A stretch of DNA of 64,000 nucleotides, taken from a virus. The stretch lies in IMG/VR virus record IMGVR_UViG_3300024346_000009; one strand, written 5' to 3'. Shown here one piece after another: positions 10,017 to 35,473 of the stretch (positions are counted from its first letter, which is position 1; the number at the start of each line of letters is the position of its first letter). The notes below the pieces were generated by a model. That model was not told where the DNA came from. It worked only from the letters and a program-made list of their open reading frames with translations, and made no database searches. Made by a program: the position numbers and the translations under genes.

Positions 10017-10565
10017 TTATTCTTTTCGCGCTCTTGCTCTTCTATGCTCCTCTATATAATAGAGACCTACTTCAATAGAATCATAATCTCTTCCCAATTG
10101 GAAGCCTGGGGGAAGTCTGTTTCTATCTCTTACCCTCGTCTCCTTATCCGCTCTAGGATTGTATGCCCAATAAGAGTCTTTTGTGTGTTGGTTACCTAAC
10201 TTCTTTTCAGCCATTATATCCTTGGTATCAGCGTTATGCCTCTTTCCCTGAAAGTTGGATCTTCCTTTTAAGCCAGCTGATATCTTCTGCCTTGTGGCCT
10301 CGTCTCTAGGCTTTCCCATCTTTGCTTCTGACATCTTACGCTTTGTCTCATCTGACATGGGTTTACGAACATACTGATACCATTCTATAAACTCATACTT
10401 GCCGTAATTACGTAACAGCCTGGTTCTTATAACGTTTACTGCAGAGGTATCTTTAATTGAGTTAAGTAACTCGTAACGATGGCCATACTTAATTCTCACC
10501 TTGTCAACAGGCTGATCTGAAATTAGAATTGTCTTTGTTACGTCGTAACAGTAGAAGTGAATCAT
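10017..10565 (-). CDS. NUMOD3-motif DNA-binding protein
   Basis: Repeated SDETKRKMSEAKMG / DEATRQKISAG / GKRHNADTK motifs; no nuclease motif seen. Confidence 0.7.
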   Translation of the reverse strand: MIHFYCYDVTKTILISDQPVDKVRIKYGHRYELLNSIKDTSAVNVIRTRLLRNYGKYEFIEWYQYVRKPMSDETKRKMSEAKMGKPRDEATRQKISAGLKGRSNFQGKRHNADTKDIMAEKKLGNQHTKDSYWAYNPRADKETRVRDRNRLPPGFQLGRDYDSIEVGLYYIEEHRRARARKE

Positions 10566-15146: not shown

Positions 15147-15350
15147 ATGACTATTACAGTAAAAGAAATGATTGAGGCATTAAGCAAGTTGCCTTCAGAT
15201 GCCGAGCTCGTAGTAACGGAGAGCGGTTATTACAGTTATGGGGAATTTGCCAATATTATGTTGCCTGAGGTCTACACGGTGGGGGAGGACGAGGATATAC
15301 CAGTAGGTACGCAGGTGTACCGCATTGGCCATTCACATCAGAGTTATTGA
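15147..15350 (+). CDS. Hypothetical early protein (TVKE.IE.L...P.D family)
   Basis: SD AAGGAG; N-terminus resembles that of the C-free ORF at 17062. Confidence 0.7.
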   Translation: MTITVKEMIEALSKLPSDAELVVTESGYYSYGEFANIMLPEVYTVGEDEDIPVGTQVYRIGHSHQSY

Positions 15351-16186: not shown

Positions 16187-16374
16187 TGACCGATAAAGAA
16201 GAACTAAAAGCACTACTAAAGTCGTATAAAGAATCACCTTCAAGGGGGATAAGGGATGAGATAGCAATTTCTAAGATAGAAGATATACTGGATAATAACG
16301 ATATAGTATTCAGGCCTGAAGAATTACCAGACGACTTTATCTTTGAGAATCCAGATAAACACGCATCTCATTGA
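16186..16374 (+). CDS. Hypothetical protein
   Basis: SD GGAGG, coupled. Confidence 0.6.
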   Translation: MTDKEELKALLKSYKESPSRGIRDEIAISKIEDILDNNDIVFRPEELPDDFIFENPDKHASH

Positions 16375-16666
16375 ACCTCCTCTGACCTATCTTATAGCCG
16401 TCTGGGGCATTGTGTCTACGATAAGTCTTATCCGAACGATTCACTATCCATCTTGCACCATCAATACGGTCATCGTGACCCCTCTCATGTCTTATCCTAT
16501 CCTTAGAATCAGTAGAATGTTTCTTTCCTGCATGGTTAGCCCTACCAGACATAGAAGAAGAAATCTTAGATCTAGTTTCAGCATCGTGATGGGTTCCGCG
16601 ATGGGCGGAGGCAATGGCGGCCTTGTGGGGGCCGGTCATTCGATATTCTCTTAAAGTCTTGTACAT
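16337..16666 (-). CDS. NUMOD3-motif DNA-binding protein
   Basis: HDAETRSKISSSMSG, GKKHSTDSK; late-like CATAAATA upstream at 16693-16700. Confidence 0.6.
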   Translation of the reverse strand: MYKTLREYRMTGPHKAAIASAHRGTHHDAETRSKISSSMSGRANHAGKKHSTDSKDRIRHERGHDDRIDGARWIVNRSDKTYRRHNAPDGYKIGQRRFNEMRVYLDSQR

Positions 16667-16703: not shown

Positions 16704-16761
16704 TATTGACTTAAACTAATACATTAGGTATCGTTCTATTGACTTAAACTAATACATTAGG
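16704..16761 (+). repeat. Two perfect 25-bp direct repeats TATTGACTTAAACTAATACATTAGG (period 33)
   Basis: Copies at 16704-16728 and 16737-16761. Confidence 0.9.
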
Positions 16762-17010
16762 AGGGAGAGAGGGAAGAAGGGGATAGGATGGGGAGTTAGT
16801 AAGGTAGACTTACTATTATTTATTTTAAATTGGTATGTATTTATAGTTAGAAAAATAGGATTTTGCCGGCCTAATAAACGTTTTCACCAAAACACCCTCT
16901 CGTACACCTCTACATTAACAACCCCCCTACTTCTGTCCACATCTATATTAACCCCCACACCTATTCCTCCAAACTTAATTAGATCCCTATAACTCCATAA
17001 TAAACAAACA

Positions 17011-17036
17011 AAAAAAAGGACCTATTAGGTCCTATT
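17011..17036 (-). terminator. Rho-independent terminator of the C-free transcript
   Basis: AGGACCT-AAT-AGGTCCT hairpin followed by a U-run on the minus strand. Confidence 0.8.
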
Positions 17037-17061
17037 ATACTATAATCAACCCCATTATCAC

Positions 17062-17229
17062 TTAATCATAATAATCTTCTTCACCATTAATATAAACTCC
17101 ATCTTCATCATAACAAACTTCAATACTCTCTTTACTACCACTTAATCCCCTATTTCTCTCTATACTAATATTAATATCCAAATCACCATTAATATCTTTC
17201 AAAATATCCATTAACTCATTTACTTTCAT
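17062..17229 (-). CDS. 55-aa acidic protein encoded without any cytosine
   Basis: MKVNELMDILKDINGDLDINISIERNRGLSGSKESIEVCYDEDGVYINGEEDYYD*; SD AAAGGAG, TATAAT upstream, terminator downstream; below the ORF-track cut-off. Confidence 0.8.
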   Translation of the reverse strand: MKVNELMDILKDINGDLDINISIERNRGLSGSKESIEVCYDEDGVYINGEEDYYD

Positions 17230-17366
17230 ATTATCTCCTTTATATTATAAACCTAATAACTCTTTTTCATTATCATTTCTTCCTTACTACTTCCTCTATT
17301 ATAACTCCTTTCCCCTTTTCCCCCTAATTTAAATTAATAACCCTACTTTTTAGTATAGTACTATTC

Positions 17367-17415
17367 TAATATAAACTAATTACTCCCCACACCCCTTTTA
17401 ATATAAACTAATTAC
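17367..17415 (+). repeat. Two 17-bp direct repeats TAATATAAACTAATTAC (period 32)
   Basis: Copies at 17367-17383 and 17399-17415; share the TAAACTAAT core with the 16704 repeats. Confidence 0.85.
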
Positions 17416-17504
17416 CCCAAAATAAATTAAAAATATATTTTTTATATAAAGGGGCATATAAAATAATTACTTTTGCCGCGGCGAAAGACCGTCCTGGGAG
17501 GAAG

Positions 17505-17541
17505 GTTACTGCTTGACGACTGGACCGAAATGGACTATAAT
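17505..17541 (+). promoter_or_regulatory. Early promoter
   Basis: GTTAC-tgc-TTGACG-17-TATAAT. Confidence 0.8.
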
Positions 17542-18868: not shown

Positions 18869-19002
18869 GCCAAAAGGATCGAATCCTCAAGGCGCCAGTT
18901 GAAAAATTACTGGCAACTATTTTGTAACTAGTTTATATGCATTTCAAACCGCAAATTAACTAGTTACTTTTTTGAATAACCTTTTTTTCGGATGGTTACT
19001 GC

Positions 19003-30144: not shown

Positions 30145-30618
30145 ATGAACGATAGTAGATTAAAACTTATAGCGCATCGCGGTAACACAACAGGTCCAGA
30201 TCCTAGTAGCGAGAATACCCTTGCCGTCATAGACCACTGTATTGATATGGGGTATGATGTTGAGATAGATCTTTGGTATCATGATGGGGATTTATATCTA
30301 GGGCATGATGAGCCTACAATTCCAATTACTATCGATTATCTACTTCCGCATAAAGATAAACTTTGGATTCATTGCAAAAATCTCCAGGCTTGTACAAGAT
30401 TACATAACCTACGTAATTTTAATTATTTCTTTAATGAAGAGGATAATTATGCTTTGACCTCTGAGCGGTTTGTTTGGACATACCCTAGGCCACAGAACGT
30501 ATATGCCTGGAATCAGGTAATGTTAGATTTTGGTTCAGATGTTGATTTTAAAAAATACGAACTGTTAGGGGTGTACGGCGTTTGCGCTGATTACTTACCT
30601 ATAATTAAAAGGAGCTAA
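30145..30618 (+). CDS. Glycerophosphodiester phosphodiesterase-like protein
   Basis: IAHRGN, EN, VEIDLW, LGHD, HCKN. Confidence 0.75.
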   Translation: MNDSRLKLIAHRGNTTGPDPSSENTLAVIDHCIDMGYDVEIDLWYHDGDLYLGHDEPTIPITIDYLLPHKDKLWIHCKNLQACTRLHNLRNFNYFFNEEDNYALTSERFVWTYPRPQNVYAWNQVMLDFGSDVDFKKYELLGVYGVCADYLPIIKRS

Positions 30619-30667
30619 TTATATGACAGGGCAGGCGCGGGTTAATTATATGACAGGAGCTAATTAC

Positions 30668-31576
30668 ATGGCGGTAGAAAAGAAAAAGATTTATATTGCA
30701 GGGTCGGGAGGTATGCTTGGTGATGCATTCTATAAAATTTTTAGTTCGGATTATGAATTGAAGTGTACTGATATAGATTTAAATGCAGAGTGGTTATCTT
30801 ATCTAGATTTCCGATATATAGATGCATATACAGCAGACGTTATGGCATTTAAACCTGACTATCTATTTCATGTAGGTGCGCATACTGATCTTGAGTATTG
30901 TGAAGATAATGTTGATGACACTTACATGACAAATACGTTATCGGTAGAAAATGCAGTATATATTTCTAATAAACTTAATATACCTCTTCTGTATATCTCT
31001 ACAGCAGGAATATTTGACGGTAAGAAAGAAGAATATGATGATTGGGATATACCTAACCCCCTAGGTCACTACGCCAGGAGTAAATATGCTGGTGAGCTGT
31101 TTGTAGAGAAGAACTCTAAAAGGTATTTAATTTGTAGAGCAGGGTGGATGATGGGAGCCGGTCCCAGTAAGGATAAAAAGTTTATTAATAAAATAATGGC
31201 TAAATTAAAGAGCGGTGAAAAAGAACTCTTTATTGAAAATAAGCTAGGTACGCCAACCTACACATACGACTTTGCGAAATGTGTGAAGGGTCTATTAGAA
31301 AAAGAATATTGGGGTCTGTACAATATGGTTTGTAGTGGGGCTACTGGTAGGTATGAGGTAGCACAAGAGCTAGTTAAAATACACGGGCTTGAAAACGACG
31401 TAAAGATTACACTTGTTGGTGCAGACTACTGGGCTAAAGAATACTTTGCAGCCAGACCAGATTGCGAGCGATTGGTGGATAAAAAGTTAAAATTAAGAGG
31501 CATGAATTTTATGAGACACTGGAAAGTGTGCTTAAAAGAATACATGCAAACACATTATGCAAACTACTTGGAATAA
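30668..31576 (+). CDS. rmlD: dTDP-4-dehydrorhamnose reductase-like SDR
   Basis: GSGGMLG, TD...CE, YIST, YARSK, GTPTY..D. Confidence 0.8.
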   Translation: MAVEKKKIYIAGSGGMLGDAFYKIFSSDYELKCTDIDLNAEWLSYLDFRYIDAYTADVMAFKPDYLFHVGAHTDLEYCEDNVDDTYMTNTLSVENAVYISNKLNIPLLYISTAGIFDGKKEEYDDWDIPNPLGHYARSKYAGELFVEKNSKRYLICRAGWMMGAGPSKDKKFINKIMAKLKSGEKELFIENKLGTPTYTYDFAKCVKGLLEKEYWGLYNMVCSGATGRYEVAQELVKIHGLENDVKITLVGADYWAKEYFAARPDCERLVDKKLKLRGMNFMRHWKVCLKEYMQTHYANYLE

Positions 31577-31578
31577 TT

Positions 31579-32331
31579 ATGCATTCAGAATATAAAATAT
31601 CAGTTGTGTGTCCCATCTATACAATAAGGGATCAATTAGGGTCAAGATTTCTTGTCGAATATCTTACTATGTTAACACATCAAACGTTTAAGAATTTTAA
31701 TGTCATTGTTTCTGATCAAAGTGACGATAATATTTTTGAAGATATATGTAAGTCTTTTTCTGACACCCTTAATATTAAGCATGTAAGAAATGCAGGTGCC
31801 AAGGGCATTTGTAATAATATTAATGTTGGTATGAGGCACGCAACAGGTGAGATTATAAAGATCTTGCACGTAGATGATTTCTTTTACAACAATGGTGCAC
31901 TCGGACAAATTGCGCATGCGTTCGATCACAACCCTGGTAAATGGTTAATTGGTGGATTTTGTACCAGTGATCAAGAAAGAAGTAAAGTATACAATGCGAG
32001 ATTACCCCGATATGATAATGCTGTTGTTAATGGAGATAATTCTACAGGTAATCAATCTAACTACGCTATACGAAGAGAGTTTGCAATAGAGATGGATGAA
32101 TCTCTTCTATTCTTATGTGATGGTGAGTTTTTCTATCGTTCATACTACCACTACGGTATGCCTATTATGATCAATGATATTTTAATATGTTTTAGAGAAC
32201 ATTATGCATCGACGTACTTAATGCTTTTAAAACAAGAGCCCGTAACCCAGCTTGAGGTCAAAGAACGGCAGTATTGTGTAGATAAATTTAATAAACCCGT
32301 GGAACATAAACTCGTATGCTACCTAAACTAA
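31579..32331 (+). CDS. Family 2 glycosyltransferase
   Basis: ISVVCP.Y, QTF, SDQSDD, ATGEII..LHVDD. Confidence 0.85.
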   Translation: MHSEYKISVVCPIYTIRDQLGSRFLVEYLTMLTHQTFKNFNVIVSDQSDDNIFEDICKSFSDTLNIKHVRNAGAKGICNNINVGMRHATGEIIKILHVDDFFYNNGALGQIAHAFDHNPGKWLIGGFCTSDQERSKVYNARLPRYDNAVVNGDNSTGNQSNYAIRREFAIEMDESLLFLCDGEFFYRSYYHYGMPIMINDILICFREHYASTYLMLLKQEPVTQLEVKERQYCVDKFNKPVEHKLVCYLN

Positions 32332-33053
32332 TTCATAAAAACTTTACAAAGAGTAATACTAATTTTTTATTCTTTAATGCTGATGATGGCCTGTCAAATG
32401 CTATGATCCGGGATGGGGGAGATTGGGAGGAGCATATTAAAGAAAAAAGTAGAGAGCTTCTTAAGGGGGTAGATCAACCTACAGTTCTTGACATAGGTGC
32501 AAATCTTGGTGCCTATTGTATACCCATTGCAAAAGAAATACAGAGTAAGGGCGGTACGGTGCATGTATTTGAACCTCAAAGAATTGTGTATTACCAGTTG
32601 TGTGCTAACATAGTCCTTAATAGATTAGATAATGTTTATGCTTTTAATCAAGCAGTGGGTGACTACGATGGTATGATTAACATTCCGGATATTAATTATG
32701 AACATAACCCAAATATAGGGGCTTTTTCTTTCGTTAAACAATATCGAGATGCCCATGGTCTTGGACCATCCATGTCTGTAAATAATACCCAGGTACCTAT
32801 CATTCAGCTTGATAGTTTGACGCTACCGACGCAGGTTGACCTCATTAAAATAGATGTTGAAGGGTTTGAGATAAATGTACTTCGTGGGTCTGCCGACTTC
32901 TTAATGCGTAACGGGTACCCCCCTATCCTATTTGAAGTATGGAACTTCGAATGGTTTAAGGAAGGTAAGCAAGAGATCTTTGATTGGTTAGTAAGTGCTG
33001 GGTATGAAATTACCTCGTTAAATGGTATTGATCATCTAGCGAAACACCCATAA
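32316..33053 (+). CDS. FkbM-family SAM methyltransferase
   Basis: LDIGANLG, FEPQ, IKIDVEGFE. Confidence 0.9.
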   Translation: MLPKLIHKNFTKSNTNFLFFNADDGLSNAMIRDGGDWEEHIKEKSRELLKGVDQPTVLDIGANLGAYCIPIAKEIQSKGGTVHVFEPQRIVYYQLCANIVLNRLDNVYAFNQAVGDYDGMINIPDINYEHNPNIGAFSFVKQYRDAHGLGPSMSVNNTQVPIIQLDSLTLPTQVDLIKIDVEGFEINVLRGSADFLMRNGYPPILFEVWNFEWFKEGKQEIFDWLVSAGYEITSLNGIDHLAKHP

Positions 33054-33106
33054 CTGTGGTACTACAGGAAGGATGAGCGTATAATATCTAATTATGAGAG
33101 GATTAT

Positions 33107-33778
33107 ATGAAATTTGGTAATGAAACTATTGCGCTACTAAAGAACTTTGCGTCTATTAATACGAACATCGTCTTTAAGCCTGGTGATAATGTGAGTACTA
33201 TATCTAATGCAAAGAATATCTTTGTAAAGGCTACCATTAAGGAAGCTATACCTAATGAGTTTGCGGTGTATGATTTAAACTCTATGCTAGCGATGCTCAC
33301 GCTAATGGATAACCAAGAGGTTGAGTTTAGTGATAAGTGTCTTGTAGTTACAAGCCCGATGGGTAAATTTGAATACTATTATTCTAATGCAGATATTGTA
33401 ACAGCGGCTCCTGCAGGGGAAATTGAACATACCGATGTTTATAAGTTTAAACTTACTGCTGAAGATGTTCAAATGATTATGAAAGCGGCTGCTATTACAG
33501 GAGCGCCTACTGTAACTGTATCCTGTAAGAATCAAGAAGTTACATTATCGGTTAGTGATCGTAAAAATGATACAGCTGCTAACTTTAAGAAGCAGATTGG
33601 AACCTCCTTTGAAAATTTTGATATCTTTATTGCAGTAGAGAACTTAAAAGTTATTCCTGATGCTTATGAGGTAACTGTAGCTAAGACTCCTAATGGTAAG
33701 GCAAAGTTCCTTCACTTTAAGCATGAATCAAAACAACTACAATACTGGATAGCCGCCGAACCTGGTTCAGTTGTTTAA
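33107..33778 (+). CDS. gp45: Sliding clamp gp45
   Basis: LKNFASIN, YDLN, YWIA.E; synteny. Confidence 0.92.
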   Translation: MKFGNETIALLKNFASINTNIVFKPGDNVSTISNAKNIFVKATIKEAIPNEFAVYDLNSMLAMLTLMDNQEVEFSDKCLVVTSPMGKFEYYYSNADIVTAAPAGEIEHTDVYKFKLTAEDVQMIMKAAAITGAPTVTVSCKNQEVTLSVSDRKNDTAANFKKQIGTSFENFDIFIAVENLKVIPDAYEVTVAKTPNGKAKFLHFKHESKQLQYWIAAEPGSVV

Positions 33779-33792
33779 CCTAGGATTACATT

Positions 33793-34725
33793 ATGAACGA
33801 ACACTTTCTCTTTGTTGAGAAGTATAGGCCGCGGACTATTAATGAGTGTATCTTACCTGAGGATCAAAAGCAGTTCTTTAATCAGCTAGTTGCAAAGGGT
33901 GAGATACAGAATATGCTTCTGTGTGGTACTGCTGGTACTGGTAAGACAACGGTAGCGAGAGCTTTATGTGAAGAGCTTAAGACTGATTATATTATCATCA
34001 ACGGATCGGAAGAGTCCGGTATCGATGTCCTTCGGACTAAGATTAAATCTTTTGCATCTACGGTATCCTTTACCGGCAACACCAAGGTTGTTATACTAGA
34101 TGAGGCTGACTACTTAAACCCTAATTCAACTCAACCTGCACTTCGTGGATTCATAGAAGAGTTTGCATCTAATTGCAGATTCATCTTAACGTGCAATTTT
34201 AAAAATCGTATCATACCGCCCTTGCATTCAAGGTGCGCTGTAATTGAGTTTAAGATTCCTAATGCTAGTAAGCCAACTATTGCTACAGATTTCTTTAGAC
34301 GAGTATGCAGTATATTGGATCAAGAACTTATACCTTTTGATCCGAAGGTAATTGCTAAAGTAGTACAAAAGCACTTCCCTGACTTCCGTAGAACTTTAAA
34401 TGAACTTCAGCGCTATTCTCAATCAGGATCTATTGATGAAGGTATTCTTGTTAGTGTAAGTGAAGCTAATATGAAAGACCTGGTCGATTCTATAAAAGAT
34501 AAAGACTGGAAGAAGATGAGGGGATGGGTTGTTAATAATTTAGATAATGACCCTGTATCTTTATTTCGTAAAATTTATGATACCTTTATTCCCCTAACTA
34601 ATCAGGTACCTCAGTTAGTACTTACAATTGCTGACTACCAATATAAATCTGCGTTTGTCTCTGACCAGGAAATTAACTTGGTAGCGTGTCTAACCGAAAT
34701 TATGGCAAGCGTGGAGATAAAATGA
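33793..34725 (+). CDS. gp44: Clamp loader large subunit gp44
   Basis: EKYRP, GTGKTT, LDEAD, SRC. Confidence 0.96.
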   Translation: MNEHFLFVEKYRPRTINECILPEDQKQFFNQLVAKGEIQNMLLCGTAGTGKTTVARALCEELKTDYIIINGSEESGIDVLRTKIKSFASTVSFTGNTKVVILDEADYLNPNSTQPALRGFIEEFASNCRFILTCNFKNRIIPPLHSRCAVIEFKIPNASKPTIATDFFRRVCSILDQELIPFDPKVIAKVVQKHFPDFRRTLNELQRYSQSGSIDEGILVSVSEANMKDLVDSIKDKDWKKMRGWVVNNLDNDPVSLFRKIYDTFIPLTNQVPQLVLTIADYQYKSAFVSDQEINLVACLTEIMASVEIK

Positions 34726-35012
34726 AGGATATATTACTAAATACATATGACTGGATATACGATGACTATTGCACTCATCCTCTTAGGTTCTGCATTGAGT
34801 TGCTTGCTTGGGCTATTAGTATTGGCTGTTCGATTACCATGGCTCTCACTGTCCCCAACCCGCCTTTACTTGCTTTGTACCCTGTTTGGATTGTCGGCTG
34901 CAGTCTCTATGCTTGGGCTGCTTATAGTAGGAAATCTTTTGGGATGCTGGCTAACTACCTGCTTCTGGTAACCATTGACTCGGTCGGCCTTACGAGGATG
35001 TTATGGACATAA
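34722..35012 (+). CDS. Small membrane protein inserted between gp44 and gp62
   Basis: About three TM helices; SD GGAG. Confidence 0.65.
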   Translation: MKDILLNTYDWIYDDYCTHPLRFCIELLAWAISIGCSITMALTVPNPPLLALYPVWIVGCSLYAWAAYSRKSFGMLANYLLLVTIDSVGLTRMLWT

Positions 35013-35473
35013 ATAAAGTTTTTGGTCAGGGAGTAGCGGAGGGTATCACTGAGGTGTATAAAGAGCCATCAATGTCTCCTTTTGATTTTATAAATGCAAT
35101 TACCTTTAATAAGAACGATTTAATCGTCGATGAATGGTCAGAAAAACAATACATTCCTTACATTATTAATAAGGGTCTATCGTATGGGGTCGATACAGTA
35201 ATTCCAGCTAATGAGATGAATGCGCGCCCACATATCGGTAAGAAACTCCAATTCCAATTTTTAATAAATAGTATTAGACCTAGAAAACGCTTTAACAAGT
35301 GGATAAAGGCTGAAAAGATTGAATCGATAGAAGTAATTAAGACATACTATGGCTATAGCACTGAGAAAGCCCGCCAGGTACTCCCCCTTCTTGATCAGTC
35401 AAAAATTGACTACTTAAAACAAAAATTAGAAAAAGGTGGGATTTATAATGTCAAACGAGTATTTCAAGATTGA
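35003..35473 (+). CDS. gp62: Clamp loader small subunit gp62
   Basis: PFDFINAI, NEMN, RPRKRF.KW, YYGYS.EKA. Confidence 0.92.
   Translation: MDINKVFGQGVAEGITEVYKEPSMSPFDFINAITFNKNDLIVDEWSEKQYIPYIINKGLSYGVDTVIPANEMNARPHIGKKLQFQFLINSIRPRKRFNKWIKAEKIESIEVIKTYYGYSTEKARQVLPLLDQSKIDYLKQKLEKGGIYNVKRVFQD

Follow-up and report, generated by a model that had tools for sequence, protein, structure and literature searches.

Phages that encode DpdA3 replace all the G of their DNA, which in the Flavobacterium phage immuto_2-6A is done with fdPreQ1 (PMC10516641). Bacterial Dag glycosylases are reported to excise 7-deazaguanines and nick the backbone and to cut fully modified DNA into small pieces, with homologues known from both Proteobacteria and Bacteroidota (bioRxiv 10.1101/2025.10.29.685425). 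The Alc protein of T4 is a terminator of transcription specific for DNA with unmodified dC (PMC2988021). Compositional extremes are known from GRINS, which are duplicated regions of more than 500 bp in large genes, with over 80% identity within a cluster and a correlated TA skew (PMC8256042). Here we analyzed a locus of IMGVR_UViG_3300024346_000009, the genome of an aquatic T4-like phage (159.7 kb), contained in a stretch of 64 kb that we call the window and to which all coordinates refer unless stated otherwise.

A composition scan confirmed the claim of an earlier note on this DNA that G is missing from the plus strand between 17030 and 17352, so that the minus strand, which is the sense strand, is strictly free of C over 323 nt. 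A second run of the same kind (17359-17450, minus strand, 92 nt) lies upstream of the promoter and is separated from the first by two Gs of the plus strand. Elsewhere in the genome the longest G-free run of the plus strand measures 53 nt, with an expected maximum of about 44 nt, and the probability of a 323-nt run at one place is about 1e-33. The stretch shows zero differences to contigs of three sequencing runs, being identical in one contig of X1, possibly the source run, in a pair of adjoining X7 contigs and, over 16818-17314 with the deletion junction described below but with the flanks uncovered, in X13, which is an RNA library from another study whose contigs come without strand or ends and may derive from DNA, and hence are no proof of transcription. 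The suspicion that the tract could be an artefact of assembly or base calling is excluded, because tracts of the same type accompany 11 homologous proteins and occur at 19 further loci, with their reading frames intact, and are not limited to one assembly.

The C-poor element that had been placed at 17011-17352 is therefore real, but it is longer than claimed and extends from about 16893 to 17455. Comparison by blastn, and the junctions in five close relatives that miss the insert at the equivalent site (L001 and L003-L006), delimit an accessory insert of 563 nt on the minus strand (16893-17455) that holds the whole C-free unit and in which 13 C stand against 152 G. The main parts proposed for the gene were all found where they had been claimed, including a predicted promoter (17298-17327, minus) with a weak -35 box TTAGGG (17327), a spacer of 18 nt and a -10 box TATAAT (17303) that is invariant across five aligned loci, a Shine-Dalgarno sequence (17235-17241, minus), a gene of 55 codons (17062-17229, minus) for an acidic protein of net charge -10, and an intrinsic terminator (17009-17033, minus) whose four stem Cs stand at equivalent positions in relatives. 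Past the terminator follows a G-rich and C-poor non-coding flank (16893-17009, minus; 45 G, 3 C). Flanks poor in C characterize the clade of this phage (2 C in 98 nt upstream and 3 C in 117 nt downstream), and they lean towards a cause at the level of DNA, unless these flanks are transcribed.

The insert adjoins the first ordinary early promoter (TTGACG..TATAAT, 17513-17541, plus), which lies on the opposite strand, is divergent from the cassette and serves genes with ordinary C. Two operator-like repeats fall inside the C-free zone, within the run at 17359-17450, and in them the C of the palindromic core has been exchanged for T, whereas the outer copies keep it. The repeats at the insert border resemble operators, and they recur at 18924-18967, where the early promoter is an ordinary one. 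This repeated motif with its palindromic core (17383-17470 and 18924-18967), which lies upstream of early promoters and forms inverted pairs in relatives, is probably the binding site of a phage regulator. The surrounding region presents an array of near-consensus sigma-70 promoters (15095, 17513, 17783, 18475, 19003 and 24553), and early gene blocks are shuffled among relatives. Just beyond the insert, 16756-16865 is poor in C on the plus strand. Two related small genes on the minus strand (10017-10565 and 16337-16666) encode homing-endonuclease-like motifs (PHROG 314/655, a weak match for the second gene), and the gene at 16337-16666 is preceded by the late-type sequence TATAAATA. In L024, a G-free stretch immediately upstream of a C-free operon and on the same strand (L024:918-1091) forms its mirror image. 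The region had no match in Rfam at an E value of 0.1.

Examination of the 11 close homologues of the 55-aa protein showed that its gene is the terminal one in an operon whose content varies and which comprises at most six small genes. Seven cassette protein families occur in the clade of this phage. C-free stretches of the operon reach 1.5 kb, and distinct alleles that total 9,618 nt contain 3 C. Nearly all close relatives have the 55-aa gene at the end of their cassette, and it is absent from one (L180). In IMGVR_UViG_3300024346_000009 a deletion runs from the leader to the final 34 nt of a 68-codon gene, and only the last operon gene has been kept. The 55-aa gene is thus what remains of an accessory, modular and early C-free operon and does not form a unit of its own. 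Alignment with L011, L017 and L022 assigned 17245-17278 (minus) to the last 34 nt of the deleted C-free gene, and two elements that had been read as regulatory dissolve into this remnant: the short upstream reading frame MIMKKSY* consists of the tail of the 68-codon gene in a wrong frame, and the second TATAAT, taken as a promoter, is its last codon and stop. Both were rejected as regulatory parts. Among the relatives, a cassette gene of the 60-aa family (72% identical) lies outside the cassette behind an ordinary early promoter (L004:9440-9631) and has 9 C in 192 nt, being either a gene that is regaining C or one on its way in.

The proposal that an ordinary protein has been recoded under a ban on C gained support from a four-letter homologue of the 55-aa protein (P0022, in L025), which is 48% identical, has ordinary C and makes use of Thr, Gln, Ala and His. 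Two homologues of 46% identity lie within other C-free tracts, of 847 and 1,006 nt. As regards the likeness that had been noticed to the gene at 15147, it stands for the N-terminus (20 columns, probability 42%) but for nothing beyond this short motif, and paralogy was rejected. All nine cassette protein families (9/9) are net acidic. The model of the 115-aa cassette protein is confident (pLDDT 87, pTM 0.82), which implies that real globular proteins can be built under the ban, and it gave weak matches to structures of uncharacterised phage proteins (best Z 3.9, rmsd 3.7 over 76 aligned residues) that do not establish a new fold. The model of the 55-aa protein is of low confidence (pLDDT 65) and had no match in a structure search of the PDB; PHROGs, the ESM Atlas and the cultured-phage collection hold no family for this protein, and two other cassette families have no homologues in the cultured-phage collection. 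Long repetitive proteins among the protein-search matches were set aside as matches of composition.

Selection was examined on the proteins and on the ban itself. With sites counted on three letters, pN/pS was 0.23 (54 silent and 92 replacement differences; P = 5e-15 against neutrality), and for the 55-aa family with sites counted on four letters it was 0.40. Of the two-fold A/G sites 29 of 119 are variable, while C appears at only 1 of 149 two-fold T/C sites (P = 1e-10), these P values being approximate since the alleles counted are related and no tree was used. In a set of 28 homologues of the 115-aa protein, variant states that require C account for 4 of 179, against 24% of such residues in the proteins of the genome. 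Judged from these comparisons of sequences, selection maintains both the proteins and the ban on C. A strand-specific deamination of cytosine, enzymatic or arising from the single-stranded non-template strand, could also remove C or select for its absence, and transcription bubbles and R-loops do indeed expose the C-free strand. The cassette gene of L004 that lies outside the cassette has C again, and the successive genes of L178 grade from 3 to 6 to 26 C, as such a process might produce. We nevertheless consider it improbable, since the eight positions at which the four-letter homologue has Thr, Gln, Ala or His carry K, D, G, N or R in the C-free family and none (0/8) shows the product of a C-to-T change, A gains about as much as T (38.7% A in the cassette against 31.8% in the genes of the genome, and 36.3% against 28.6% for T), the Cs of the terminator and of the palindrome are stable, and the ban is limited to single genes amid ordinary neighbours.

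The distant homologues locate the ban more closely. In distant phages single homologues are found under ordinary promoters and among ordinary genes, the ban spanning the leader and the gene and the promoters keeping their C. In L179 there are 12 C in the 70 nt before the start and 4 in the 369 nt of the gene, whose silent positions have C at 0 of 64 against 24 of 77 in the neighbours; for the gene of L178 the count is 1 of 80. Neighbouring early genes have 37% silent C. The three successive genes of L178 (5811-6946), each with its own promoter, are those with 3, 6 and 26 C; of these only the third is retained in G017, a complete genome that is nearly identical. Because distant single homologues are poor in C among ordinary neighbours, the ban tracks the transcribed unit and the gene family and not the position in the genome, which argues against an origin of replication, a replication gradient or an effect of the promoter only.

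This bears directly on the suggestion of the earlier note that a G-rich RNA has been selected for R-loop priming, which we considered for an origin of replication. The G-rich non-coding flanks, the repeated motifs, the AT-rich stretch at the border and the mirror-image skew upstream in L024 would fit such a role. The ban, however, moves with the genes to other places and other phages, the insert is absent in five close relatives, the repeats also stand at ordinary early promoters, and amino acids have been altered to drop single Cs, which should hardly affect the stability of a hybrid. We therefore regard priming as very improbable, and to all other explanations taken together, beyond those discussed in this work, we grant a similarly slight probability. 

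Sequence alone does not distinguish between G in the template and C in the RNA, and the question of what is being avoided has to be approached through the remainder of the genome. The phage encodes QueE, FolE, a 293-aa DpdA3, a PurN-like DpdN, a kinase, QueF, QueC and QueD. The genes queE, folE, dpdA3, dpdN, kinase and queF lie just before the start of the window (genome coordinates 30574-35410), and queC is the part of the 7-deazaguanine cluster that falls within it (89-850, plus). The 293-aa protein is 52% identical to the DpdA3 of immuto_2-6A and 42% to that of CP220 over about 90% of its length, the DpdN-like protein is 41% identical to its counterpart in immuto_2-6A and occupies the same position, and the order dpdA3-dpdN-kinase-queF is common to both phages. 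Virion DNA of this phage thus probably has formyl-preQ1 at every G, and the letter missing from the template of the cassette is the letter that the phage is predicted to modify.

The same conjunction appears in immuto_2-6A, whose early gene immuto26A_128 (MW353175.1 68330-68686; L083:3831-4187) contains 5 C over its 357 nt (p = 5e-20), with silent C at 0 of 69 positions against 64 of 401; this phage was picked through its DpdA3 and is hence biased for the association. BLASTP detected no homology between immuto26A_128 and the 115-aa cassette protein. A third lineage (G014/G017), with C-poor genes and a mean protein identity of 46%, was reached by gene homology and not by DpdA, and its complete member G017 has QueD, QueE, FolE and a DpdA3-like protein of 24-28% identity, with a gene that is only moderately poor in C (25 C in 396 nt). 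The genes queE, folE, the distant DpdA3-like gene and a kinase lie together at 199462-207479 of G017; the search run gave no match to QueC or QueF in this genome, which suggests a replacement of the CDG/DG type as in phiST or CP220.

All three C-free lineages that could be linked to a genome (L024, L026 and L179 are outside this count) thus carry DpdA3-like genes, and six genomes with DpdA3 matches (CP220, phiST, BSP7, MA9V-3 and the complete relatives G001 and G002) are without a C-free gene, as are C-free tracts absent from four QueC phages without a DpdA3 match. The co-occurrence with que and dpdA genes that the earlier note had raised is hence seen from the side of the cassette but not from that of the modification, and with three lineages that have C-free genes, six DpdA3 genomes that lack them and 0 of 4 controls, in a sample of DpdA3 phages that is small and biased, the association is not significant. 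A rule by which phages with motif-specific DpdA would lack GA or GG on their early templates was rejected, as it was unseen in Greed, JenK1, Flasso and R10Z. Two other skewed elements came to light among these phages: 1.7 kb of the plus strand of Campylobacter phage CP220 without GA (FN667788.1 from 171467), probably a repeat region, and in phage JenK1 a C-free stretch of 75 nt with a G-free one of 76 nt behind it (KP719134.1 52676-52845), a small mirror-skew element.

The modification could act without any defence, if the RNA polymerase of the host reads formyl-preQ1 templates poorly and G-free genes are read first to supply adapting factors, the reverse of what Alc does in T4. This proposal shares the co-occurrence with DpdA3, and a 7-substituted 7-deazaguanine inhibits bacterial RNA polymerases in vitro (PMC4838386). 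The inhibition is exerted at initiation and not at elongation (PMC4838386), whereas the ban lies in the body of the gene, G001 and G002 have the same gene cluster and no cassette, and the 37% of silent C in neighbouring early genes speaks against it as well. We consider this proposal, too, to have little probability. Because inhibition concerns initiation in vitro and relatives live without the cassette, modification alone is unlikely to block reading. Of the suggestion that the G-free template is linked to the que cluster, the link itself is strengthened by DpdA3 and DpdN in this phage and by C-poor genes in two distant DpdA3 lineages, but the unreadability of the modified template is contradicted by the neighbouring early genes, which have ordinary template G, and by the five relatives without the cassette.

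The target may instead be the C of the RNA, through a defence RNase that cuts at C, the loading of Rho on CC or UC, or a shortage of CTP, with the products relieving the block. Several observations argue for such a target. In stand-alone homologues the ban runs from about the start of transcription to the stop codon, and of 12 sister promoters only that of immuto26A_128 lacks C both at its start site and in its leader. Folding of the transcript is weak, at -0.13 kcal/mol per nt against -0.22, and Rho of E. coli recognises CC and UC (PMC13323073). Against it, the ban in the clade of this phage reaches about 160 nt beyond the predicted start on the upstream side and includes the flank past the terminator, unless these are transcribed, and about 3 of 10 residual silent Cs stand in UC, near the approximately 28% that we estimated by hand, with no clear avoidance of UC. 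The effect described for Rho is a mild purine bias and the cassette genes are rich in U (36%), no paper on CTP depletion as a phage defence was found in the open-access literature, and the presence of DpdA3 genes in all three genome-linked lineages is left unexplained. We take an RNA target to be possible but doubtful. Of the earlier idea of a message that needs no CTP, an attack at the level of RNA stands as such a possibility, and the version involving viperin is unlikely, because the phage appears to use the host RNA polymerase.

The explanation that we prefer, and hold tentatively, is that a G-free template would be readable while the host excises modified G, and that the acidic products counter the enzymes of the host. 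The property under selection would be a template strand without G. In hosts whose Dag-type glycosylases excise 7-deazaguanines and nick the DNA, each template G would be a possible stop for RNA polymerase and the chance of completing a transcript would drop with their number, which implies a steady gain for every G removed and tolerance of a few Thr or Ala codons, in agreement with what is observed. Genes needed during the attack would shed their template Gs singly, despite the cost in Ala, Pro, Thr, Gln and His, and nicks in the G-rich non-template strand would not interrupt the template. The small acidic products would then be counter-defence proteins, for instance DNA mimics, that rescue the remaining genome, a role that we guess from their charge and position. 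The selection seen on the proteins and on C, and the movement of the ban with gene families into other phages, support a G-free template as refuge from excision, as do the match between the missing and the modified letter, the C-poor genes of immuto_2-6A and G014/G017, the absence of such tracts from the four QueC phages and the acidity of all nine families. A conflict that depends on the host would also suit the accessory nature and the changing content of the cassette. Against it weigh the six DpdA3 genomes without a C-free gene, the G-rich non-template strand of the promoter, which a glycosylase would damage, and the negative result of the comparison with structures of known DNA mimics. Extending this reading, it is conceivable, though we would not assume it, that base-modifying phages in general keep counter-defence genes with a template lacking the modified letter, transcribable during attack. 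If this were true, letter-free genes would point to proteins that inhibit modification-directed defences, and folded proteins would be seen to evolve on an alphabet of 15 amino acids because of escape from defence. Should the preferred explanation hold, inhibitors of modification-directed glycosylases could be listed by scanning genomes for composition.

Placing the locus among known systems, Ocr, Arn and Ugi are acidic proteins that mimic DNA, and T5 and T7 avoid motifs in the DNA that is injected first. The cassette resembles them in its small acidic early proteins and, under the preferred explanation, in counter-defence genes lying out of reach of the defence, although no match in sequence or fold to Ocr, Arn or Ugi was found for its proteins, and the avoidance in T5 and T7 concerns short motifs whereas here it concerns a whole letter. 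An R-loop origin of the T4 type would be conserved at the same site in close relatives, and the insert is absent from L001 and L003-L006. In the open-access literature, with few subscription papers covered, we found no published description of cytosine-free phage genes, and in the open-access literature searched none of natural three-letter genes with 15 amino acids under purifying selection. A keyword search of the study on immuto_2-6A (PMC10516641) found no mention of transcription.

With GRINS the cassette shares a local and intense GC skew at the expense of Pro, Thr, His and Gln (PMC8256042), its own GC skew being intense and its amino-acid use recoded, but it is single-copy and made of whole small genes, the tract being unique in the genome and the region without any long repeat. 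The purine bias that avoids Rho (PMC13323073) is likewise a selection on the sense strand that reaches codon and amino-acid use; it is genome-wide, mild and directed against both pyrimidines, whereas that of the cassette is absolute, directed against C only and confined to a few U-rich genes, with 36% U against 29% in the genes of the genome. Alc of T4 offers the likeness of a transcription that depends on the modification state of one DNA letter, but there a phage protein acts against host DNA and there are no letter-free genes. The Dag enzymes (bioRxiv 10.1101/2025.10.29.685425) would supply the selection, with a host activity on every modified G; the passages of that preprint examined here describe this activity on 7-deazaguanines, give the loss of DpdA as the escape of the phage, and contain neither activity on fdPreQ1 nor a phage inhibitor or G-free template. 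The nearest relative in gene content is immuto_2-6A, with the same gene set and order and with immuto26A_128 as an early gene also poor in C; full replacement of G has been measured there, whereas in IMGVR_UViG_3300024346_000009 the modification is deduced from the genes (PMC10516641). The pathway of G modification is hence of a kind already known, and the three-letter operon is distinct from GRINS, from the purine bias related to Rho and from Alc. Whatever its cause, the responsible agent must affect either almost all Cs in the message or all Gs in the template, and such an agent points to an unrecognised defence or to an unrecognised cost of DNA modification, for which gene 128 of immuto_2-6A provides a cultured test case with a measured full replacement of G.
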